Part shown: positions 1,472-39,034 of the stretch, piece after piece
Layout: each line of letters starts with the position of its first letter
Numbering within the stretch: the stretch's first letter is position 1
Sequence record: ON528715
Direction: 5' to 3' (one strand)
Source of the DNA: Shigella phage ESh1
Length of the DNA stretch: 39,034 nucleotides
Position numbers and translations under genes: made by a program
The notes under the pieces: generated by a model
The model's input: the letters and a program-made list of their open reading frames with translations, nothing else
Databases searched by the model: none
Told to the model about the DNA's origin: nothing

Positions 1472-3346
1472 ATGGCTAACGTAATTAAAACCGTTTTGAC
1501 TTACCAGTTAGATGGCTCCAATCGTGATTTTAATATCCCGTTTGAGTATCTAGCCCGTAAGTTCGTAGTGGTAACTCTTATCGGTGTAGACCGCAAGGTC
1601 CTTACTATTAATACAGACTACCGTTTCGCTACTCGTACTACAATCTCACTGACTAAGGCTTGGGGTCCAGCGGATGGCTACACTACTATCGAGTTACGTC
1701 GAGTAACCTCCACGACCGACCGCTTGGTTGACTTTACGGACGGCTCAATCCTTCGTGCGTATGACCTTAACGTTGCCCAGATTCAAACGATGCACGTAGC
1801 GGAAGAGGCGCGTGGCCTTACTGCCGATACCATCGGTGTCAATAACGATGGTCACTTAGATGCCCGTGGTCGTCGCATTGTGAACCTAGCGAACGCCGTG
1901 GATGACCGTGATGCTGTTCCTTTTGGTCAACTAAAGACCATGAACCAGAACTCATGGCATGCTCGAAATGAGGCCCTACAGTTCCGCAATGAGGCTCAGA
2001 ATTTCCGCAATCAAGCGGAAGGCTTTAAGAACGCGTCAGATACTAACGCTACTAACACAAAGCAGTGGCGAGATGAGGCTGAGGGGTTCCGTAATGAGGC
2101 CGAGCAATTCAAGAATACGGCTGGTCAATATGCCACCTCTGCTGGGAACTCTGCGTCTGCTGCTCATCAATCTGAGGTAAACGCTGGGAACTCAGCTACT
2201 GCCTCCGCAGATTCTGCCGCTTCTTCGAAACAGCAAGCAGACCGAGCGAAGCAGGAGGCAGACAAACTGGGCAACTGGAATGCACTTGCAGGGGCCATTG
2301 AGGGTGTTGATGGTAACGATGTAACGTTTAAAGGCATTATCAAAACACCGTTTAACGTTGTAGGTGGCGGCCTTGTCTCTACTGGTGCTGCAAGCATTGC
2401 AAAGGGTTTGAGTGTTGATGGTGGACTTGTTGTTGGTGAAGATATCGCTGCACATAAGGATGTGTGGGTAGATGGTGTGGTTGTTGCCAATGGTGGTATA
2501 CAGCAACAGTCTGGACCTAATTCCACTAATGATATGTGGCGACTGTTTATTAAAGGGGGACCAATGCATATTGGAAACCGACAAGGCCTTCACCTTGGTT
2601 GGAACGAGAGTGTTGGTACAGGGGCGTCATCCTTTATTACCAACAAAGGCTTAGGTGATGGGGGTTTTATTTTCCGCACGGTAAACTTTGAGAACACTGC
2701 TGAGATTGGTCGCGTTACATTCACTGGTAACGGTGGAGTACGCGCCTTCGATTTACAAGCAGTTAACGGTGCGCGCATTGAGGCTGGAAACAATATAGTA
2801 GGCGCAAGGATTTTCTCAGGAATGGGCAGCTGCCAATTCGATACCGAAGGTAACTTACTGGGAGGACTATGGAACCGCGTTGGTGGTGACCTATACAACT
2901 TCCTGTGGAACAAGGGTCACTTCGCTAAGCCACCTGCTGGAGTCCAGTTGTTTACATCCCGTGGTGGTGACTACCTCGAGGGTCTCGTGGATAACACGGC
3001 TGTAGGGTTCCGCTGGTTTCTGTCAGACAGGAGACTTAAAGAAAACATAAAGGTTGTACGCTCCGCTGAGGATATGCTCAATATTATCCGCTCGTACATC
3101 CCGGTTTCCTATAAGTATAAGGACTCTGAGTATGTTGATAAGCGTGGTAGAACGGTAAGAATTACCGGTAAGAACTCTCGCGCTGGTTTCATTACTCAGG
3201 ATTTGATTAGAATCTGGCCTGAGGCGGTGGACGTGCTGTCCGATGGTATGCAATCACCAGACCCTAACCAAATCATTGGTGGACTAATGCTTCTTGTCAA
3301 GAACCTTGACGAACGTGTACAGGAGTTGGAGAAAAATAACGCTTAA
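1472..3346 (+). CDS. 17: Tail fiber protein (gp17), mosaic: T7-like N-terminal region, divergent central/receptor-binding region, C-terminal chaperone-like module
   Basis: 624-aa ORF with RBS TAAGGAGGT. N-terminus MANVIKTVLTYQLDGSNRDFNIPFEYLARKF matches T7 gp17 to about residue 270, then diverges; C-terminal motif FLSDRRLKENI resembles auto-cleaving intramolecular chaperone domains. Confidence 0.9.
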   Translation: MANVIKTVLTYQLDGSNRDFNIPFEYLARKFVVVTLIGVDRKVLTINTDYRFATRTTISLTKAWGPADGYTTIELRRVTSTTDRLVDFTDGSILRAYDLNVAQIQTMHVAEEARGLTADTIGVNNDGHLDARGRRIVNLANAVDDRDAVPFGQLKTMNQNSWHARNEALQFRNEAQNFRNQAEGFKNASDTNATNTKQWRDEAEGFRNEAEQFKNTAGQYATSAGNSASAAHQSEVNAGNSATASADSAASSKQQADRAKQEADKLGNWNALAGAIEGVDGNDVTFKGIIKTPFNVVGGGLVSTGAASIAKGLSVDGGLVVGEDIAAHKDVWVDGVVVANGGIQQQSGPNSTNDMWRLFIKGGPMHIGNRQGLHLGWNESVGTGASSFITNKGLGDGGFIFRTVNFENTAEIGRVTFTGNGGVRAFDLQAVNGARIEAGNNIVGARIFSGMGSCQFDTEGNLLGGLWNRVGGDLYNFLWNKGHFAKPPAGVQLFTSRGGDYLEGLVDNTAVGFRWFLSDRRLKENIKVVRSAEDMLNIIRSYIPVSYKYKDSEYVDKRGRTVRITGKNSRAGFITQDLIRIWPEAVDVLSDGMQSPDPNQIIGGLMLLVKNLDERVQELEKNNA

Positions 3347-6649: not shown

Positions 6650-6830
6650 CTTCATCCCTATAGAGTCAAGTCCTAAGGTATACCCATAAAGAGCCTCTAA
6701 TGGTCTATCCTAAGGTCTATACCTAAAGATAGGCCATCCTATCAGTGGAACCTAAAGAGGGTCTTAGAGAGGGCCTAAGGAGTTCCTAGAGGGTCCTTTA
6801 AAATATACCATAAAAATCTGAGTGACTATC
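6650..6830 (+). repeat. Right-end short-repeat array (CCTAAAG/CCTAAGG-type motifs) preceding the terminal repeat
   Basis: Repeated motifs tcctaaggtatacc, tcctaaggtctatacc, cctaaagataggcc, cctaaagagggtc, cctaaggagttcc; corresponds to the T7 right-end repeat region. Confidence 0.6.
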
Positions 6831-6990
6831 TCACAGTGTACGGACCTAAAGTTCCCCCCATAGGGGTACCAAAGGCCCAGCCAATCACCTAAAGTCAACC
6901 TTCGGTTGACCTTGAGGGTTCCCTAAGGGTTGGGGTTGGTCCCTTGGGTTTACCTTGAGTGTCTCCTTGTCCCTATCTGTTCAGTCTCCT
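6831..6990 (+). repeat. Direct terminal repeat (single collapsed copy; concatemer junction)
   Basis: Begins TCTCACAGTGTACGGACCTAAAGTTCCCC, the T7 genome-end sequence; length assumed about 160 bp by analogy, the true boundary cannot be set from one copy. Confidence 0.6.
6975..6981 (+). promoter_or_regulatory. Concatemer-junction pause site for phage RNAP (ATCTGTT)
   Basis: Exact ATCTGTT heptamer inside the terminal repeat, as in the T7 class II pause/termination signal. Confidence 0.5.
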
Positions 6991-13099: not shown

Positions 13100-13357
13100 A
13101 TGGGACGTCTATATAGTGGGAACTTAAATGACTTCAAGGCTGCTTTCAACAGGCTCTACCAGTTGGACCTTGCTGTTATAGCAGTTGAGCAGGAAGGCTC
13201 ACCAAACATAAAGGCAACCATGTACCTTCGGATTGAAGACCGTGCTGGACGCATAATTGCTCAGGAAGAGATTCACCACTGCGACGAAGACGTTCTGTAC
13301 AATATATGCACTGCTTGGCTGAACCGTATGTATGACCAGTTGAAGGACTGGAAGTAA
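13100..13357 (+). CDS. 1.2: gp1.2, inhibitor of host dGTP triphosphohydrolase
   Basis: 85 aa; N- and C-termini (MGRLYSGNL.. and ..MYDQLKDWK) match T7 gp1.2, central region diverged. Confidence 0.8.
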   Translation: MGRLYSGNLNDFKAAFNRLYQLDLAVIAVEQEGSPNIKATMYLRIEDRAGRIIAQEEIHHCDEDVLYNICTAWLNRMYDQLKDWK

Positions 13358-13377
13358 TACGACTCACTAAAGGTAGA
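13355..13377 (+). promoter_or_regulatory. Phage RNAP promoter phi1.3
   Basis: TAATACGACTCACTAAAGGTAGA, overlapping the 1.2 stop. Confidence 0.8.
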
Positions 13378-13382
13378 ACCCA

Positions 13383-13796
13383 ATGAACGACATAAAGCGA
13401 TTCAACGATAAGACCGAACCGTGTGGTGATTGTTTGCGTTGGATTGGTAGCATCCAGCCTAATGGCTACGGACGGTTTCGCCTGCATGGTAAGCCTATGT
13501 ATGCCCATAGGGCTTCGTACATTCTGTTCAACGGTGAGTTGAATAATGGTGATGTAGTCCTACACTCCTGTGACAATAGATGGTGTGTAAATCCGGCACA
13601 CCTAATCAAGGGCACACAGGCAGATAACCTTATAGACATGGCTATCAAAGGCCGTGGCGCTAGAAAGATAACTAATGAGCAGGTCGAGATGATACGTATG
13701 GACCCTCGCTCCGGCAGGGAGCTAGCAAGGGTACTTAATGTAGCTGCTTCGACAATAAGCCACATACGAAACGGTAAACTGAGGAAATATATATGA
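13383..13796 (+). CDS. HNH-family homing endonuclease (free-standing), inserted between phi1.3 and the ligase gene
   Basis: 137 aa with N-terminal CGDCLRW and HNH core GDVVLHSCDNRWCVNPAHLIKGTQADN; stop overlaps ligase start (ATGA). No counterpart at this site in T7. Confidence 0.8.
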   Translation: MNDIKRFNDKTEPCGDCLRWIGSIQPNGYGRFRLHGKPMYAHRASYILFNGELNNGDVVLHSCDNRWCVNPAHLIKGTQADNLIDMAIKGRGARKITNEQVEMIRMDPRSGRELARVLNVAASTISHIRNGKLRKYI

Positions 13797-15486: not shown

Positions 15487-16079
15487 TGGGACTGTTAGAT
15501 GGTTCAGATTGGGAAAAAGAAAACCCACCAGTTCAATCAACTGGGTGTATAGCTTGCTTAGAGAAAGATGACCGTTATCCACACACTTGCAACAAAGGAG
15601 CTAACAATATGACCGAACGTGAACAAGAGATTATCATTAAGTTGATAGATAATAACGAGGGTCGTAGCGGAGACACATCTGGTTGTGGACTGTTCTGCGC
15701 TGGAGTACCTTGCGGCGAGTGTCCTGTGACAAACGATGGGCACATTACTCTAGGTGAAATCCGAGCGATGGACCCGCGTAAACCTCACCTGAATAAACTT
15801 GAGGTAACTCCTACAGATGACCATCCTTCCGCTGAGGCAATCGAAGGTGTCACTAAGCCTTCCCATTACATGCTGTTCGATGACATTGAGGCTATCGAAG
15901 TGATTGCCCGTTCAATGACTCGTGAGCAGTTCAAAGGGTACTGCTTAGGGAACATCCTTAAGTACCGCCTACGTGCTGGTAAGAAGTCAGAACTGGCTTA
16001 CTTAGAGAAAGACATGGCGAAAGCTGGCTTCTATGGTGAACTGTACGAGAAACATAAGGATAAGTGCTATGACGCTTAA
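15486..16079 (+). CDS. 1.7: Nucleotide kinase (gp1.7)
   Basis: 197 aa, Cys-rich N-terminal region, matches T7 gp1.7; start overlaps the 1.6 stop. Confidence 0.85.
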   Translation: MGLLDGSDWEKENPPVQSTGCIACLEKDDRYPHTCNKGANNMTEREQEIIIKLIDNNEGRSGDTSGCGLFCAGVPCGECPVTNDGHITLGEIRAMDPRKPHLNKLEVTPTDDHPSAEAIEGVTKPSHYMLFDDIEAIEVIARSMTREQFKGYCLGNILKYRLRAGKKSELAYLEKDMAKAGFYGELYEKHKDKCYDA

Positions 16080-16159
16080 CGATGTTCTGTACTTCGGATT
16101 AATTTGTGCTGGAGTAGGCGCGTTACTTCGCTTAATGTATTGGGCCATAGAGGTGGAAT

Positions 16160-16176
<17 letters not shown>
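16069..16176 (+). CDS. Small ORF overlapping 1.7 end (1.8-region, frame A)
   Basis: 35-aa ORF MTLNDVLYFGLICAGVGALLRLMYWAIEVEYGKAK starting where T7 gene 1.8 would start; below the ORF-track cutoff. Confidence 0.35.
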
Positions 16177-16472
<296 letters not shown>

Positions 16473-16549: not shown

Positions 16550-17248
16550 ATGGCTAAGAAGATTTTCACCTCTGCGCTTGGCATCGCTGAACCTTACGCT
16601 TACATCTCTAAGCCGGACTACGGCAACGAAGAGCGTGGCTTTGGGAACCCTCGCGGTGTCTACAAAGTTGACCTGACTATTCCCAACAAAGACCCGCGCT
16701 GCCAGCGTATGGTCGATGAAATCGTGAAGTGCCACGAAGAGGCTTATGCTGCTGCCGTTGAGGAATACGAAGCTAACCCGCCTGCTGTAGCTCGTGGTAA
16801 GAAACCTCTGAAACCGTATGAAGGAGACATGCCGTTCTTCGATAACGGTGACGGCACGACTACCTTTAAGTTCAAATGCTATGCGTCTTTCCAAGACAAG
16901 AAAACCAAAGAGACCAAGCACATCAATCTGGTTGTGGTTGACTCCAAGGGCAAGAAGATTGAAGACGTTCCGATTATCGGTGGCGGCTCTAAGCTGAAAG
17001 TCAAATACTCTCTGGTTCCGTACAAGTGGAACACTGCTGTGGGTGCCAGCGTTAAGCTGCAACTTGAATCCGTGATGCTGGTCGAACTGGCTACCTTTGG
17101 TGGTGGTGAAGACGATTGGGCTGACGAAGTTGAAGAGAACGGCTATGTTGCCTCTGGTTCTGCCAAAGCGAGCAAACCACGCGACGAAGAAAGCTGGGAC
17201 GAAGACGACGAAGGCTCTTACGAAGAAGACTCAGACGGAGACTTCTAA
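16550..17248 (+). CDS. 2.5: Single-stranded DNA-binding protein (gp2.5)
   Basis: 232 aa with acidic C-terminus ...DEDDEGSYEEDSDGDF; matches T7 gp2.5. Confidence 0.95.
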   Translation: MAKKIFTSALGIAEPYAYISKPDYGNEERGFGNPRGVYKVDLTIPNKDPRCQRMVDEIVKCHEEAYAAAVEEYEANPPAVARGKKPLKPYEGDMPFFDNGDGTTTFKFKCYASFQDKKTKETKHINLVVVDSKGKKIEDVPIIGGGSKLKVKYSLVPYKWNTAVGASVKLQLESVMLVELATFGGGEDDWADEVEENGYVASGSAKASKPRDEESWDEDDEGSYEEDSDGDF

Positions 17249-17704
17249 GTGGCTGGCGCATACGCTGCGCGTGGTATCAGAAAGGTCGGGACATTCCGTT
17301 CCGGCCTAGAAGATAAGGTCTCTAAGCAGCTAGAGGGTAAGGGCATTAAGTTCGACTATGAACTGTGGAAAATCCCTTACGTTGTCCCTGCGAGCAACCA
17401 TGTGTATACTCCAGACTTCCTGCTGCCTAACGGAATCTTTATTGAAACCAAAGGTTTATGGGAGAGTGACGACCGAAAGAAACACTTACTGATTCGCGAA
17501 CAGTTTCCCGAACTGGACATCCGTCTGGTGTTCTCAAGCTCACGCACTAAGCTGTATAAAGGGTCTCCTACCAGTTATGGTGAGTGGTGTGAGAAGCACG
17601 GTATTCTGTTTGCTGACAAATTAATTCCTGTAGAATGGCTCAAAGAACCCAAAAAGGAGGTGCCATTTGACAAGCTGAAACAATCGAAGGGAGGAAAGAA
17701 ATAA
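17249..17704 (+). CDS. 3: Endonuclease I, Holliday-junction resolvase (gp3), GTG start
   Basis: 151 aa (M)AGAYAARGIRKVGTFRSGLEDKVSKQLEGKGIKF.. matches T7 endonuclease I; begins directly after the 2.5 stop. Confidence 0.85.
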   Translation: MAGAYAARGIRKVGTFRSGLEDKVSKQLEGKGIKFDYELWKIPYVVPASNHVYTPDFLLPNGIFIETKGLWESDDRKKHLLIREQFPELDIRLVFSSSRTKLYKGSPTSYGEWCEKHGILFADKLIPVEWLKEPKKEVPFDKLKQSKGGKK

Positions 17705-18159: not shown

Positions 18160-18160
18160 T

Positions 18161-18183
18161 TAATTAAACTCACTAAAGGGAGA
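18161..18183 (+). promoter_or_regulatory. Phage RNAP promoter phi3.8-like
   Basis: TAATTAAACTCACTAAAGGGAGA followed by ACCACAACGGTTTCCC; here it directly precedes gene 4. Confidence 0.75.
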
Positions 18184-18215
18184 CCACAACGGTTTCCCTT
18201 TGTTCGCAATGTTGA

Positions 18216-19931
<1,716 letters not shown>

Positions 19932-19949
19932 CAAGATTCTTGACGATTT

Positions 19950-19972
19950 CAATACGACTCACTAAAGGAGAC
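19950..19972 (+). promoter_or_regulatory. Phage RNAP promoter phi4.3
   Basis: CAATACGACTCACTAAAGGAGAC upstream of gene 4.3. Confidence 0.75.
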
Positions 19973-19979
19973 ACACATC

Positions 19980-20192
19980 ATGTTCAAACTGATTAAGAAA
20001 TTAGGCCAACTGCTGGTTCGCATGTACAACGTGGAAGCCAAGCGTCTGAACGATGAGGCTCGTAAAGAGGCCACACAGTCACGCGCTCTGGCGGTTCGCT
20101 CCAATGAACTGGCTGACAGTGCGTCCACAAAAGTTACCGAAGCTGCTCGTGTAGCAAACCAAGCTCAACAGCTTTCCAAATTCTTTGAGTAA
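19980..20192 (+). CDS. 4.3: gp4.3
   Basis: 70 aa MFKLIKKLGQLLVRMYNVEAKRLNDEARKE.., as T7 gp4.3. Confidence 0.85.
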   Translation: MFKLIKKLGQLLVRMYNVEAKRLNDEARKEATQSRALAVRSNELADSASTKVTEAARVANQAQQLSKFFE

Positions 20193-20211
20193 TCAAACAG
20201 GAGAAACCATT

Positions 20212-20481
20212 ATGTCAAACGTAGCTGAAACTATTCGCCTATCCGATACGGCTGACCAGTGGAACCGTCGAGTCCACATCAACGTTCGTAACGGTAAGGC
20301 GACTATGGTCTACCGTTGGAAGGACTCTAAGTCCTCTAAGAATCACACTCAGCGTATGACGTTGACAGATGAGCAAGCACTTCGTCTGGTTAATGCGCTT
20401 ACCAAGGCTGCCGTGACAGCAATCCATGAAGCTGGTCGCGTCAATGAAGCTATGGCTATCCTCGACAAGATTGATAGCTAA
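20212..20481 (+). CDS. 4.5: gp4.5
   Basis: 89 aa MSNVAETIRLSDTADQWNRRVHINVRNGKATMVYRW..; RBS ACAGGAGAAA; start chosen by homology. Confidence 0.85.
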   Translation: MSNVAETIRLSDTADQWNRRVHINVRNGKATMVYRWKDSKSSKNHTQRMTLTDEQALRLVNALTKAAVTAIHEAGRVNEAMAILDKIDS

Positions 20482-23095: not shown

Positions 23096-23114
23096 TTCTA
23101 TAGGAGAAATTATT

Positions 23115-23411
23115 ATGGCTATCACTAAGAAATTTAAAGTGTCATTTGACGTTACCCTTAAGCTGGACAGCGAGACAGAAGAATTGATGCGAGAAAAGAT
23201 TCTGGACCTAGCCCATCGTGCTGGTGCTGGTGAGGAAATTGCTCCTATGGACCGAGAGTTGCTAGTTCAGGCCCTGACACGTGGTCCAGACGGTGCCGCT
23301 GCATTTGCTGTTCGCCAAGGTATCCGTAACGCTGTAAAGGAGATGTTCGAAGAGACTAGTGATAAATCACTGTTCAAACAATCCCCTGCAACTGTACGGG
23401 AGGTGTTCTGA
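23115..23411 (+). CDS. 5.5: gp5.5 (H-NS-binding protein homolog)
   Basis: 98 aa MAITKKFKVSFDVTLKLDSETEELMREKILDLAHRAG..; assigned as 5.5 by length and position immediately before 5.7. Confidence 0.7.
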   Translation: MAITKKFKVSFDVTLKLDSETEELMREKILDLAHRAGAGEEIAPMDRELLVQALTRGPDGAAAFAVRQGIRNAVKEMFEETSDKSLFKQSPATVREVF

Positions 23412-25394: not shown

Positions 25395-25795
25395 TGTCTG
25401 AGTTCACATGTGTGGAAGCTGAGAGTCGCTTCCGTGCAATCCGGTGGACTGTGGAACACCTTGGGTTGCCTAAGGGATTTGAAGGACACTTCATAGGTTA
25501 CAGCCTATACGTTGACGAAGTTATGGACATGTCCGGTTGTCGTGAAGAGTACATTCTGGACTCTACAGGAAAACATGTAGCGTACTTTGCGTGGTGTGTA
25601 AGCTGTGATATTCACCACAAGGGAGACATTCTGGACGTAACGTCAGTTGTCATTAATCCTGAGGCAGACTCTAAAGGCTTGCAGCGATTCCTAGCGAAAC
25701 GCTTTAAGAACCTTGCAGAACTCCACGATTGCAATTGGGTGTCCCGCTGTAAACATGAAGGCGAGACAATGCGTGTATACTTTAAGGAGGTATAA
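25394..25795 (+). CDS. 7: gp7 host-range/virion protein
   Basis: 133 aa MSEFTCVEAESRFRAIRWTVEHLGLPKGFEGHFIGYSLY.. Confidence 0.85.
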   Translation: MSEFTCVEAESRFRAIRWTVEHLGLPKGFEGHFIGYSLYVDEVMDMSGCREEYILDSTGKHVAYFAWCVSCDIHHKGDILDVTSVVINPEADSKGLQRFLAKRFKNLAELHDCNWVSRCKHEGETMRVYFKEV

Positions 25796-25798
25796 GTT

Positions 25799-26119
25799 AT
25801 GGGTAAGAAAATTAAGAAGGCCGTGAAGAAAGTCACCAAGCCAATTACGAAAGCCGTGAAGAAAGTTACCAAGGAAGTGGCTCGTCCTGTTAAACAGGTT
25901 GCTGGTGCGCTGGCAGGTGGTGCTGGTGAAGCACAGGTAGTGGAAGTACCACAACCAACGGCTGCTGCAACTCCTGCTGCACAGATTGTTGACGTACCTG
26001 AGAAAGAGGTTTCCACTGAGGACGAAGCACAGACCGAAAGCGGACGTAAGAAAGCCCGTGCTGGCGGTAAGAAGTCCTTAAGCGTAGCCCGTAGCTCAGG
26101 TGGCGGCATCAACATTTAA
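25799..26119 (+). CDS. 7.3: gp7.3 tail/adsorption-associated protein
   Basis: 106 aa lysine-rich MGKKIKKAVKKVTKPITKAVKKVTKEV.., about 7 aa longer than T7 gp7.3. Confidence 0.85.
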   Translation: MGKKIKKAVKKVTKPITKAVKKVTKEVARPVKQVAGALAGGAGEAQVVEVPQPTAAATPAAQIVDVPEKEVSTEDEAQTESGRKKARAGGKKSLSVARSSGGGINI

Positions 26120-26133
26120 ACAGGAGGTGACAC

Positions 26134-27744
26134 ATGGCTGAGAAGCGTACAGGTCTAGCCGAGGAAGGCGCAAAGTCCGTTTATGACAGATTGAAGAACG
26201 ACCGCGCTCCTTATGAGACTCGTGCTCAAAACTGCGCTCAGTACACCATTCCGTCCCTCTTCCCTAAGGACTCCGATAACTCATCCACAGACTACACAAC
26301 TCCGTGGCAAGCCGTGGGTGCTCGTGGTCTCAATAACTTAGCCTCTAAGCTCATGTTGGCACTCTTCCCTATGCAAACGTGGATGAAGCTGACTATCTCT
26401 GAGTATGAGGCGAAACAGTTACTGAATGACCCAGATGGACTCGCCAAGGTCGATGAGGGTCTCTCAATGGTAGAGCGTATCATCATGAACTACATTGAGT
26501 CGAACAGCTACCGAGTGACTCTCTTTGAGGCTCTCAAGCAGTTAGTAGTAGCGGGTAACGTCCTGCTGTACCTACCGGAACCAGAAGGGTCAAACTATAA
26601 TCCCATGAAGCTGTACCGATTGTCTTCTTATGTGGTCCAACGAGACGCATTCGGCAACGTTCTGCAAATGGTGACTCGTGACCAGATAGCTTTTGGTGCT
26701 CTCCCTGAGGACATCCGTAAGGCTGTAGAAGGTCAAGGCGGTGAGAAGAAAGCTGATGAGACCGTCGATGTGTACACTCACATCTATCTGGATGAGGACT
26801 CAGGTGAATACAAACGATACGAAGAGGTCGAGGGTATGGAAGTACAAGGCTCCGATGGGTCTTACCCTAAAGAGGCTTGCCCATACATCCCGATTCGAAT
26901 GGTTCGGCTCGACGGTGAATCCTACGGTCGTTCGTACATTGAGGAATACTTAGGCGACTTACGGTCCCTTGAGAATCTCCAAGAGGCCATCGTTAAGATG
27001 TCAATGATTAGCTCTAAGGTTATCGGCTTAGTGAATCCTGCTGGTATCACCCAGCCACGCCGACTGACCAAAGCTCAGACTGGCGACTTCGTTACTGGTC
27101 GTCCAGAGGACATCTCGTTCCTCCAATTGGAGAAGCAAGCAGACTTTACTGTAGCCAAGGCTGTCAGTGATGCTATTGAGGCTCGCCTTTCGTTTGCCTT
27201 TATGTTGAACTCTGCGGTTCAGCGCACAGGTGAACGTGTGACCGCCGAAGAGATTCGGTATGTCGCTTCTGAACTTGAAGATACTTTAGGTGGTGTCTAC
27301 TCTATCCTTTCTCAAGAATTACAATTGCCTCTGGTACGAGTGCTCTTGAAGCAACTACAAGCCACGCAACAGATTCCTGAGTTACCTAAGGAAGCCGTAG
27401 AGCCAACCATTAGTACAGGTCTGGAAGCAATTGGTCGAGGCCAAGACCTTGATAAGCTGGAACGCTGTGTCACTGCGTGGGCTGCTCTAGCTCCTATGCG
27501 TGATGACCCTGACATCAACCTTGCGATGATTAAGTTGCGCATTGCGAACGCTATTGGTATTGACACTTCTGGTATTCTACTCACCGAAGAACAGAAGCAA
27601 CAGAAGATGGCCCAACAGTCTATGCAAATGGGTATGGATAATGGTGCTGCTGCACTGGCCCAAGGTATGGCTGCACAAGCTACAGCTTCACCTGAAGCTA
27701 TGGCTGCTGCCGCTGATTCCGTAGGTTTACAGCCGGGCATTTAA
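26134..27744 (+). CDS. 8: Head-tail connector / portal protein (gp8)
   Basis: 536 aa MAEKRTGLAEEGAKSVYDRLKNDRAPYETRAQNCAQY.., as T7 gp8. Confidence 0.95.
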   Translation: MAEKRTGLAEEGAKSVYDRLKNDRAPYETRAQNCAQYTIPSLFPKDSDNSSTDYTTPWQAVGARGLNNLASKLMLALFPMQTWMKLTISEYEAKQLLNDPDGLAKVDEGLSMVERIIMNYIESNSYRVTLFEALKQLVVAGNVLLYLPEPEGSNYNPMKLYRLSSYVVQRDAFGNVLQMVTRDQIAFGALPEDIRKAVEGQGGEKKADETVDVYTHIYLDEDSGEYKRYEEVEGMEVQGSDGSYPKEACPYIPIRMVRLDGESYGRSYIEEYLGDLRSLENLQEAIVKMSMISSKVIGLVNPAGITQPRRLTKAQTGDFVTGRPEDISFLQLEKQADFTVAKAVSDAIEARLSFAFMLNSAVQRTGERVTAEEIRYVASELEDTLGGVYSILSQELQLPLVRVLLKQLQATQQIPELPKEAVEPTISTGLEAIGRGQDLDKLERCVTAWAALAPMRDDPDINLAMIKLRIANAIGIDTSGILLTEEQKQQKMAQQSMQMGMDNGAAALAQGMAAQATASPEAMAAAADSVGLQPGI

Positions 27745-36476: not shown

Positions 36477-39034
36477 ATGGATAAGTACGATAAGAACGTA
36501 CCAAGTGATTATGATGGTCTGTTCCAAAAGGCGGCTGATGCCAACGGGGTCTCTTATGACCTTTTACGTAAAGTCGCTTGGACAGAATCACGATTTGTGC
36601 CTACAGCAAAATCTAAGACTGGACCATTAGGCATGATGCAATTTACCAAGGCAACCGCTAAGGCCCTAGGTCTGCGAGTTACCGATGGTCCAGACGATGA
36701 CCGACTGAATCCTGAGTTAGCCATCAATGCTGCCGCTAAGCACCTCGCAGGTCTGGTAGGGAAGTTTGATGGTGATGAACTTAAAGCTGCCCTTGCGTAC
36801 AACCAAGGTGAGGGTAGATTGGGTAATCCACAACTTGAGGCGTACTCCAAGGGAGACTTTGCGTCCATCTCTGATGAAGGACGTAATTACCTTCGTAATC
36901 TTCTAGATGTGGCTAAGTCTCCTATGGCTGGACAGTTGGAAGCATTCGGTGGTATCACCCCAAAGGGTAAAGGCATTCCTGCTGAGGTAGGACTTGCTGG
37001 TATTGGGCATAAGCAGAAGGTTACGCAGGAACTTCCTGAGTCCACAAGTTTTGACGTTAAGGGTATTGAACAGGAGGCTCCGGCGAAACCATTCGCCAAG
37101 GACTTTTGGGAGACCCATGGAGAAACACTTGATGAGTACAATAAGCGTTCAACATTCTTCGGATTTAAAAATGCTGCCGAAGCTGAACTCTCCAACTCAG
37201 TCGCTGGTATGGCCTTCCGTGCTGGTCGCCTCGATAATGGTTTTGATGTGTTTAAAGACACCATTACGCCGACTCGCTGGAACTCTCACATCTGGACTCC
37301 AGAAGAGTTAGAGAAGATTAGAACCGAAGTTAAGAACCCTGCGTACATCAACGTGGTAACTGGTGGTTCCCCTGAGAATCTTGACGACCTCATTAAGCTG
37401 GCTAACGAGAACTTTGAGAATGACTCACGCGCTGCTGAGGCTGGTCTTGGGGCTAAGCTAAGTGCTGGCGTTATCGGTGCTGGTGTGGACCCTCTCAGCT
37501 ATGTACCTATGGTTGGGGTTACTGGTAAGGGCTTCAAGTTAATCAACAAGTCTCTTGTGGTTGGTGCTGAGAGTGCTGCCCTTAACGTGGCTTCGGAAGG
37601 ACTACGCACCTCCGTTGCTGGTGGTGATTCCGACTATGCTGGAGCGGCTCTAGGAGGCTTTGTATTTGGTGCAGGAATGTCTGCACTCAGTGACGCTATC
37701 GCCGCTGGTCTGAAACGGAATAAGCCAGAAGCTGAGTTTGACAATGAGTTTATTGGTACTATGATGCGAATGGAAGCACGCGAGACTGCACGTAACGCCA
37801 ACTCTACGGACCTCTCTCGGATGAATACAGATAACATGAAGTTTGATAGTGAGCATAACGGTATTCCATATGCAGACCTTCCTACTGAGAAGGGTGCTGT
37901 GGTTCTCCATGATGGCTCTGTACTTAGTGCTAGTAACCCAATCAATCCTAAGACTCTCAAAGAGTTCTCCGAGGTTGACCCTGAGAAAGCTGCACGAGGC
38001 ATCAAACTAGCAGGATTCACTGAGATTGGGTTGAAGACCTTAGGCTCAGACGACGCCGATATTCGACGTGTGGCTATTGACCTAGTGCGGTCTCCTACCG
38101 GAATGCAATCAGGTTCCTCAGGTAAGTATGGTTCAACAGCTTCGGATATTTTCGAGAAACTTCGTGGCACTGACCAGCGTACTTACAACGACTTGTATAA
38201 GGCGATGTCTGACGCGATGAAAGACCCTGAGTTCTCCACTGGTGGAGCTAAGATGTCTCGAGAAGAAGCTCGTTACACTATCGAGCGTCGAGTGGCCTTG
38301 GCTATTGAGAACCCTGAGCTACAGAAGGCTTTAACTCCTAACGAGCGAATCGTAATGGACATCGTTAAGAGACATTATGACACCAAGCGTGAACTCATGG
38401 AGAACCCTGCGGTCTTTGGTAATACCAAGGCTGTGAGTATCTTCCCAGAGAGTCGCCACAAGGGTACATATGTTCCACATGTGTACGACAAGTACGCTAA
38501 GGCACTTAAGATTCAACGTTATGGCGCTGAGGGCTTACAGGAAGGTATCGCTCGGTCGTGGATGTGTAGCTACGATTTGAGACCTGCGGTAAAGGCCCGT
38601 ATTGACGAAGCACTTAAAGAGATGCACGGTGTAGAGGAAGTCACACATGATATGGTGTATAAGTACGCTATGGATAAAGCATATGGTATCTCCCACTCAG
38701 ACAGGTTCACTAATAGCTCCATCATTGAGGAGAACATTGAGGGTCTTGTCGGTATTGAGAATAACTCATTCCTTGAAGCACGAAACCTCTTTGACTCCGA
38801 CTTAGCAATCACCATGCCAGATGGCGAGCAATTCTCTGTGAACGATTTGAGGGACTTTAGCATGTTCCGTATCATGCCAGCGTATGACCGCCGCATAAAT
38901 GGTGACATCGCCATCATGGGGTCTACTGGTAAAACCACTAAGGAACTTAAGGATGAGATTTTGGCTCTTAAGGCGAAAGCCGAGGGTGACGGTAAGAAGA
39001 CTGGCGAGGTTCATGCTCTAATGGATACCGTTAA
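36477..39034 (+). CDS. 16: Internal virion protein D (gp16), N-terminal portion with lytic transglycosylase motif; 3' partial, continues at 2..1399
   Basis: MDKYDKNVPSDYDGLFQKAADANGVSYDLLRKVAWTESRFVPTAKSKTGPLGMMQF..; open to window end; the two parts total 3957 nt (1318 codons plus stop), the size of T7 gp16. Confidence 0.92.
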   Translation, partial: MDKYDKNVPSDYDGLFQKAADANGVSYDLLRKVAWTESRFVPTAKSKTGPLGMMQFTKATAKALGLRVTDGPDDDRLNPELAINAAAKHLAGLVGKFDGDELKAALAYNQGEGRLGNPQLEAYSKGDFASISDEGRNYLRNLLDVAKSPMAGQLEAFGGITPKGKGIPAEVGLAGIGHKQKVTQELPESTSFDVKGIEQEAPAKPFAKDFWETHGETLDEYNKRSTFFGFKNAAEAELSNSVAGMAFRAGRLDNGFDVFKDTITPTRWNSHIWTPEELEKIRTEVKNPAYINVVTGGSPENLDDLIKLANENFENDSRAAEAGLGAKLSAGVIGAGVDPLSYVPMVGVTGKGFKLINKSLVVGAESAALNVASEGLRTSVAGGDSDYAGAALGGFVFGAGMSALSDAIAAGLKRNKPEAEFDNEFIGTMMRMEARETARNANSTDLSRMNTDNMKFDSEHNGIPYADLPTEKGAVVLHDGSVLSASNPINPKTLKEFSEVDPEKAARGIKLAGFTEIGLKTLGSDDADIRRVAIDLVRSPTGMQSGSSGKYGSTASDIFEKLRGTDQRTYNDLYKAMSDAMKDPEFSTGGAKMSREEARYTIERRVALAIENPELQKALTPNERIVMDIVKRHYDTKRELMENPAVFGNTKAVSIFPESRHKGTYVPHVYDKYAKALKIQRYGAEGLQEGIARSWMCSYDLRPAVKARIDEALKEMHGVEEVTHDMVYKYAMDKAYGISHSDRFTNSSIIEENIEGLVGIENNSFLEARNLFDSDLAITMPDGEQFSVNDLRDFSMFRIMPAYDRRINGDIAIMGSTGKTTKELKDEILALKAKAEGDGKKTGEVHALMDTV

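Follow-up and report, generated by a model that had tools for sequence, protein, structure and literature searches.

Why is gene 7.7 of phage T7 absent from Shigella phage ESh1? In T7, this gene of 393 nt, whose product matches the Pfam model HNH_3 (49.8 bits), is located between gene 7.3 and the portal gene 8; in ESh1 (sequence record ON528715), the same interval is a spacer of 14 nt. The stretch of DNA analysed, called the window hereafter, is 39,034 nt long and is a complete, circularly permuted T7-like phage genome. The gene may have been deleted, may have moved elsewhere, or may never have been present. The evidence favours the last of these: with a probability of about 0.85 in our estimation, the allele of the 7.3/8 junction in the window is the endonuclease-free one, and 7.7 is an HNH homing gene inserted in a minority of T7-like phages.

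The junction between genes 7.3 and 8

The junction consists of the following features.

25799..26119, plus strand: gene 7.3, tail/virion assembly protein, 106 aa (Pfam VirionAssem_T7, E 4e-46)
26120..26133, plus strand: 7.3/8 intergenic spacer, 14 nt, ACAGGAGGTGACAC; an unoccupied site where T7 has gene 7.7
26134..27744, plus strand: gene 8, portal (head-tail connector), 536 aa (Pfam Head-tail_con, E 6e-113)

Gene 7.3 ends with the TAA stop codon at 26117-26119 and gene 8 starts with the ATG at 26134-26136; the end at 26119 and the start at 26134, as given in a first-pass annotation of this DNA, were found to be exact when compared with the list of open reading frames (ORFs) and the sequence. 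A Shine-Dalgarno sequence, AGGAGGT, is present at 26122-26128, five bases before the portal ATG, and the spacer contains nothing else. No ORF of about 130 aa is present between the stop of 7.3 and the start of gene 8. In pairwise blastn, window 26128 aligned with T7 19843 and window 26134 with T7 20240; therefore, gene 7.7 (T7 19848-20240) is missing as a unit. T7 19844-20239 has no counterpart in the window, with 5 nt in its place, and the statement of the first-pass annotation that no counterpart of 7.7 lies between 7.3 and the portal gene is thereby borne out. No DNA remnant of gene 7.7 was detected in the window by blastn with a word size of 7 (best E-value 0.5). Whole-genome alignment to T7, proposed earlier as a check, showed collinearity on both sides of the junction with the gene 7.7 interval gone.

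Blastn against T7 (NC_001604, L001) gave ten collinear blocks with 80-94% identity, covering nearly the whole window, and nearly all of the 56 T7 proteins were recovered in T7 order when searched against the window by tblastn. The two genomes are collinear and about 90% identical genome-wide, with 91.6% nucleotide identity over a 24.9-kb query, which places the window in the genus Teseptimavirus as judged by collinearity and high nucleotide identity to T7. Among published genomes, that of Shigella phage ESh3 (ON528717; 96.2% identity over 95% of the 24.9-kb query) is the closest, and the same 14-nt gap appears at 7.3/8 in its annotation.

An artefact, in which the contig was misassembled or a short ORF was overlooked, might be considered for a circularly permuted assembly in which gp16 is divided between the window ends (1-1399 and 36477-39034 in tblastn). 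However, both sides of the junction are collinear with T7 and unbroken, the layout is the same in the independently sequenced phages ESh3, N30, CICC 80001, NC-A and 64795_ec1, a length of 14 nt is too short for an ORF, and the four other gene indels that distinguish T7 from the window also have clean gene-sized boundaries. Such an artefact is hardly credible.

Among the virion genes of the neighbourhood, gene 7.3 is the least conserved, its product being 77% identical in amino acid sequence to T7 gp7.3 (99 aa) in tblastn; the portal protein is 98.3% identical to T7 gp8. Three short in-frame indels relative to T7 (+12, -9 and +18 nt) are located within the lysine-rich N-terminal half of gp7.3 (25799-26000), the first within a repeated KKAVKKVTK motif and the third within a stretch rich in alanine and proline. 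On the minus strand, an ATG-initiated ORF of 167 aa (25612-26115) overlaps genes 7 and 7.3 in antisense; since all genes of the T7 group are on one strand, it probably just follows from the composition of the sense strand.

Occupied and empty junctions among T7-like phages

A survey of IMG/VR yielded 80 loci encoding portal relatives, of which 78 were measurable. These loci were used for the occupancy counts, because a short junction-spanning query of the phage collection merges pieces as far as about 540 nt from each other and so does not distinguish occupied from empty junctions. The 7.3/8 spacer was 13-27 nt long in 72 of the 78 T7-like loci. Inserts of about 400 nt were found in five (T7, one T7-like record, L005, L006 and L063), and a 97-nt remnant in one (L035). 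The compact junction is the majority state in the subfamily, and the window has the form of the endonuclease-free Studiervirinae junction, a spacer within 13-27 nt containing the gene 8 Shine-Dalgarno sequence only.

The spacer ACAGGAGGTGACAC was the same or nearly so in L002, L003, L004, L008, L010, L011, L016 and ESh3; over 8 close loci and ESh3, the difference was one base at most. Spacers of the GGAGGTGAC type, 13-27 nt in length, were observed in other genera, and in distant genera every spacer was short and conformed to GGAGG(T)GAC..ATG. Since short spacers of one type occur in distant genera, the compact form looks ancestral, with T7 as the exception. Judged from this comparison, the compact junction is probably ancestral in the subfamily, and most likely T7 gained gene 7.7 rather than the window phage having lost one.

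The occupied junctions contained different genes. Among close Teseptimavirus relatives, three diverged HNH lineages were identified at 7.3/8.

Lineage A: T7 gp7.7
Lineage B: L005, LNA7 and Bas102, 72% aa identity to gp7.7
Lineage C: L006, ESh6 and ESh2, 47% aa identity to gp7.7

True gp7.7 orthologues in the phage collection had identities of at least 95%. Further HNH lineages occupy the junction in L063, Vec13 (Kayfunavirus) and fPS-53 (Helsettvirus); the portal of L063 is only 78% identical to that of the window. All of these junction HNH genes end with ..TWR(H/S)(I). In T7, L005, L006 and L063, the HNH stop codon overlaps the gene 8 ATG as TAATG, and in fPS-53 the gene 8 ATG directly follows the HNH stop. 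The TWRH codons include a GGAG, which takes the place of the displaced ribosome-binding site of gene 8. In lineage B (L005 2594-3001; L110/L112, i.e. LNA7/Bas102), the HNH gene starts where the ATG of gene 8 itself would lie and sits behind gene 8's own Shine-Dalgarno sequence (..AGGAGGTGACACATGGAG..), and the motif GACACATGGAG is present at both ends of the insert. In Yersinia phage fPS-53 (LT962379; L115 2203-3608), the portal is annotated as two overlapping coding sequences, g029 and g030, which could reflect a frameshift, a sequencing error or a real split.

Clean presence or absence of whole genes among genomes more than 90% identical supports the interpretation of the first-pass annotation that mobile endonuclease genes turn over in these phages. 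Turnover at 7.3/8 is argued for because presence and absence are clean, several HNH lineages occur at one site, and a tract of gene 8 is linked to occupancy (see below). Homing endonuclease genes in general cluster beside essential phage genes (PMC10448857). The 14-nt spacer has a single role, to provide the Shine-Dalgarno sequence for the portal gene. Under the proposed mechanism, a 7.7-type gene would spread in mixed infection, its product cutting gene-less genomes near the insertion point, and repair by recombination from an occupied genome would copy the endonuclease gene together with a flanking stretch. The window phage would be expected to be cut and converted in this way when co-infecting with a phage that encodes a gp7.7-type enzyme.

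The compact spacer could also have been left by deletion of a 7.7-type gene that an ancestor possessed. Decay of this kind does occur: in L035 (IMGVR_UViG_3300034358_000001), the 97-nt spacer at 2898-2994, ending ..CGTAAGACATGGAGGAATAATTAATG, contains the 3′ end only of a gp7.7-family HNH gene and is therefore a decayed copy left after deletion. Loss would also be tolerable, as a T7 mutant without 2.8, 3.8 and 7.7, genes called homing endonucleases by its authors, has been built and forms plaques (2025 GAPS4 preprint, bioRxiv 10.1101/2025.09.07.674715). However, the window has neither a nucleotide nor a protein remnant, and its spacer is identical to, or one base different from, the spacers of most close relatives and is similar to those of distant genera.

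A tract linked to occupancy at the 5′ end of gene 8

A region of 2.9 kb around the junction was aligned for 8 occupied and 11 empty close genomes, the window included. This alignment had 707 variable sites. Only five of them (26154, 26157, 26160, 26232 and 26256), all within the first 123 nt of gene 8, were fixed differences between the occupied and empty groups. They belong to the following feature.

26134..26260, plus strand: gene 8 5′ tract, unoccupied-type haplotype; putative homing target and co-conversion tract

The window has the alleles T, A, C, C and C at these sites in order, and all 8 occupied genomes differ from it at every one of the five. The window alleles were present at all five sites in 10 of the 11 empty genomes, the remaining one, L012, deviating at 26157 and 26160; the window thus has the unoccupied haplotype at the 5′ end of gene 8. 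High r2 with occupancy was confined to the interval between +11 and about +270 of gene 8; on either side of it, values were near background. Between 26134 and 26260, identity to the window was 80-83% for occupied genomes and 84-98% for empty ones, and T7 itself is 80% identical to the window over the first 127 nt of gene 8. Outside this tract, both groups were equally similar to the window (mostly 93-96%); therefore, the occupied genomes are not simply a clade. Discriminating sites are densest at 26145-26160, where the window reads AAG CGT ACA GGT CTA GCC and all occupied genomes read AAA CGA ACA GGA CTT GCG.

These results indicate that, regardless of which of the three lineages is present, the endonuclease gene is accompanied by a short diverged block beside the insertion point, made up of the first ~125-270 nt of gene 8. 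Co-conversion of flanking markers is documented for the free-standing endonuclease genes of T-even phages (PMC2988022, PMC2790892). The linked tract fits the pattern that would be expected of homing with co-conversion, together with substitutions that make the target resistant to cleavage. By this comparison, the recognition or cleavage site would lie within the tract at about 26145-26160, and the window would carry the cleavable version.

The tract also bears on deletion as the origin of the compact spacer. The empty genome L012, with its partly occupied-type gene 8 haplotype, is what a deletion might leave behind. Deletion in an occupied genome should, however, leave the occupied haplotype, and the gene 8 tract of the window is of the unoccupied type. 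Taken with the evidence from the spacer, secondary loss appears unlikely for the window phage.

Several points weigh against an endonuclease-free allele flanked by a homing target. The gene 8 tract could have arisen partly from plain physical linkage to the indel, or from selection on gene 8 translation initiation once this gene became coupled to an upstream ORF. A single flanking haplotype for three HNH lineages that are 45-72% identical is not obviously expected if their specificities differ; the three lineages may instead displace each other in genomes whose junction is occupied already. L012 is empty and carries part of the occupied-type haplotype, and the sample consists of 19 close genomes, several of them mutually related. 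In literature searches, no report was found of a gp7.7 cleavage site or homing assay, or of experimental cleavage or homing by its relatives at 7.3/8, and to our knowledge gp7.7-type enzymes have never been characterised biochemically.

Other endonuclease sites and comparison with known systems

The window has an HNH gene at a different location, and three further sites that are occupied by nuclease genes in T7 are empty.

13383..13796, plus strand: HNH endonuclease gene, free-standing, 137 aa, flanked by gene 1.2 and the ligase gene 1.3 (Pfam HNH_3)
17248..17249, plus strand: 2.5/3 boundary between ORFs 16550..17248 and 17249..17704, no spacer, unoccupied (T7: HNH gene 2.8)
18160..18230, plus strand: 3.5/4 intergenic region, unoccupied (T7: HNH gene 3.8); window 18211/18246 corresponds to T7 11213/11586
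23096..23114, plus strand: 5/5.5 spacer, unoccupied (T7: PD-(D/E)XK-type gene 5.3); window 23096/23098 corresponds to T7 16468/16834

The gene at 13383-13796 scored 34.6 bits with HNH_3 (cut-off 24.8) and 25.8 bits with zf-His_Me_endon, just under the cut-off of 27. This single HNH gene of the window is the one noted earlier as present elsewhere in this DNA, and it occupies a junction that is empty in T7. When gp7.7 was used as the tblastn query, a match was obtained at 13428-13793 with 39% identity over 128 aa (E 2e-22), and gp2.8 matched the same place, also with 39% identity. The first-pass annotation had named a tblastn match of gp7.7 anywhere in the window as grounds for giving up its claim. 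Formally such a match exists, but it represents a paralogue at another locus, and the wording "anywhere" is too loose.

This match raises the question of whether the HNH gene at 13383-13796 is a relocated gene 7.7. In addition to the tblastn E-value, both products share the HNH_3 match, their length and a C-terminal helix-turn-helix-like region. However, the identity of 39% is the same as that to gp2.8, and the window protein is 34-40% identical to each member of the gp7.7/gp2.8 family tested; in comparison, gp7.7 orthologues are at least 95% identical and even lineage B reaches 72%. The tblastn match at 39% was the only one, and no high-identity homologue of gp7.7 was found anywhere in the window. 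There is no nucleotide similarity between gene 7.7 and the window. The window HNH protein moreover has orthologues of its own, in ESh3 (100% aa identity), Yersinia phage WW2 (94%), Bas104 (89%) and about 20 T7-like phages (56-65%), and a DNA ligase is annotated beside the match in 22 of the 23 orthologues listed (56-100% identical), phiA020 being the exception. Relocation is thus very improbable.

The ligase-adjacent gene itself is present or absent at a fixed intergenic site among close genomes: only 2 of the 203 matching records span the whole 1.2-HNH-1.3 query, and in most relatives the alignment is broken into two pieces, the gene of about 410 nt being absent. No close relatives of it were found in the IMG/VR scan; the orthologues listed above came from the phage collection. 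A T7-type promoter-like sequence, TAATACGACTCACTAAAGGTAGA (13355-13377), ends 5 nt before the gene, for which no Shine-Dalgarno sequence is obvious. At the other end, the stop codon of the gene and the ligase ATG overlap (ATGA, 13793-13796). The coupling to a downstream essential gene, here the ligase gene, is the design also seen in the HNH genes at the 7.3/8 junction. By analogy, this gene would be expected to convert T7 at the 1.2/1.3 junction.

Genes 2.8, 3.8 and 5.3 of T7 are each absent from the window as clean gene-sized gaps in blastn and tblastn; at 2.5/3, window 17252/17273 aligns with T7 9860/10278. No tblastn match in the window better than E 0.4 was obtained with gp3.8 (0.46) or gp5.3 (0.6). 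The first-pass annotation was therefore right in listing 3.8, 5.3 and 7.7 as missing, but it overlooked gene 2.8. Its grouping of these three as homing-endonuclease-related needs a correction: gp7.7 and gp3.8 match HNH_3, as do gp2.8 and the window ORF 13383..13796, but gp5.3 matches PDDEXK_5 (PF11645; 42.1 bits, cut-off 26.1), a different nuclease fold, and no HNH model. The preprint mentioned above treats 2.8, 3.8 and 7.7 as the three homing endonucleases of T7 (bioRxiv 10.1101/2025.09.07.674715). Among relatives, the 2.5/3, 3.5/4, 5/5.5 and 1.2/1.3 junctions are all variably occupied; 5/5.5 has inserts of about 0, 310, 360 or 600 nt and contains HNH genes in T3, 13a and others. Overall, the absence of 7.7 noted in the first-pass annotation is confirmed, and its reading as gene turnover is supported.

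A more specific model can be proposed. At least three competing HNH lineages would share one homing target, the initial ~30 nt of the portal gene (about 26145-26160), each inserting exactly at the gene 8 start with a co-conversion tract of about 125-270 nt. The window phage would be a naive, cleavable recipient at four sites occupied in T7, and at the ligase site it would act as a donor. We hold this model tentatively, at slightly less than even odds.

Several other features of the genome were observed. A T7-type terminal repeat is present as a single copy at about 6829-6969, matching both T7 1-141 and T7 39778-39918; therefore, the true genome ends are located there. The tail fibre gene 17 (1472..3346) encodes 624 aa, compared with 553 aa in T7; the match is limited to residues 1-290 of T7 gp17, and the C-terminal part (2342-3346) has no similarity to T7, which suggests that the receptor-binding domain, and with it the host range, may be different. 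Three host-interaction genes had low amino acid identity to T7 next to genes with 96-99%: gene 5.5 (23115-23408) with 51%, gene 1.2 (13100-13354) with 61% and the gene 1.8 region (16071-16264) with 41%. This looks like allelic replacement and not gradual drift.

Variable carriage of homing endonuclease genes is already well known in T7-like and other lytic phages, and the same junction is present in published genomes. ESh3 and the Teseptimavirus members N30, CICC 80001, NC-A, 64795_ec1, IME390 and vB_SmaP-UFV01 have the gene order of the window, the 14-nt 7.3/8 spacer and no 7.7. ESh3 differs from the window by about 4% of nucleotides overall, and its HNH protein upstream of the ligase is 100% identical; other relatives have different sets of endonuclease sites occupied. 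T7 has 7.7, 2.8, 3.8 and 5.3 and an empty 1.2/1.3 junction, whereas the window has none of these four genes but has an HNH gene at 1.2/1.3. Possession of the four makes T7 atypical, which matters for annotation and phylogeny; therefore, their absence is not to be read as gene loss. A modest lead from the comparative signal is that the start of the portal gene is the likely target of gp7.7-type enzymes. If the model proposed above is true, T7 and the window phage would form a natural pair for reciprocal homing crosses.

Among known systems, the seg and mob genes of T-even phages (SegG, MobE) are comparable. Cleavage sites and marker exclusion have been demonstrated for the T-even enzymes, whereas the T7-like 7.3/8 case is known here from its comparative signature alone. 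The likeness lies in intergenic endonuclease ORFs which stand beside essential genes, vary among close relatives and have flanking markers that are co-converted.

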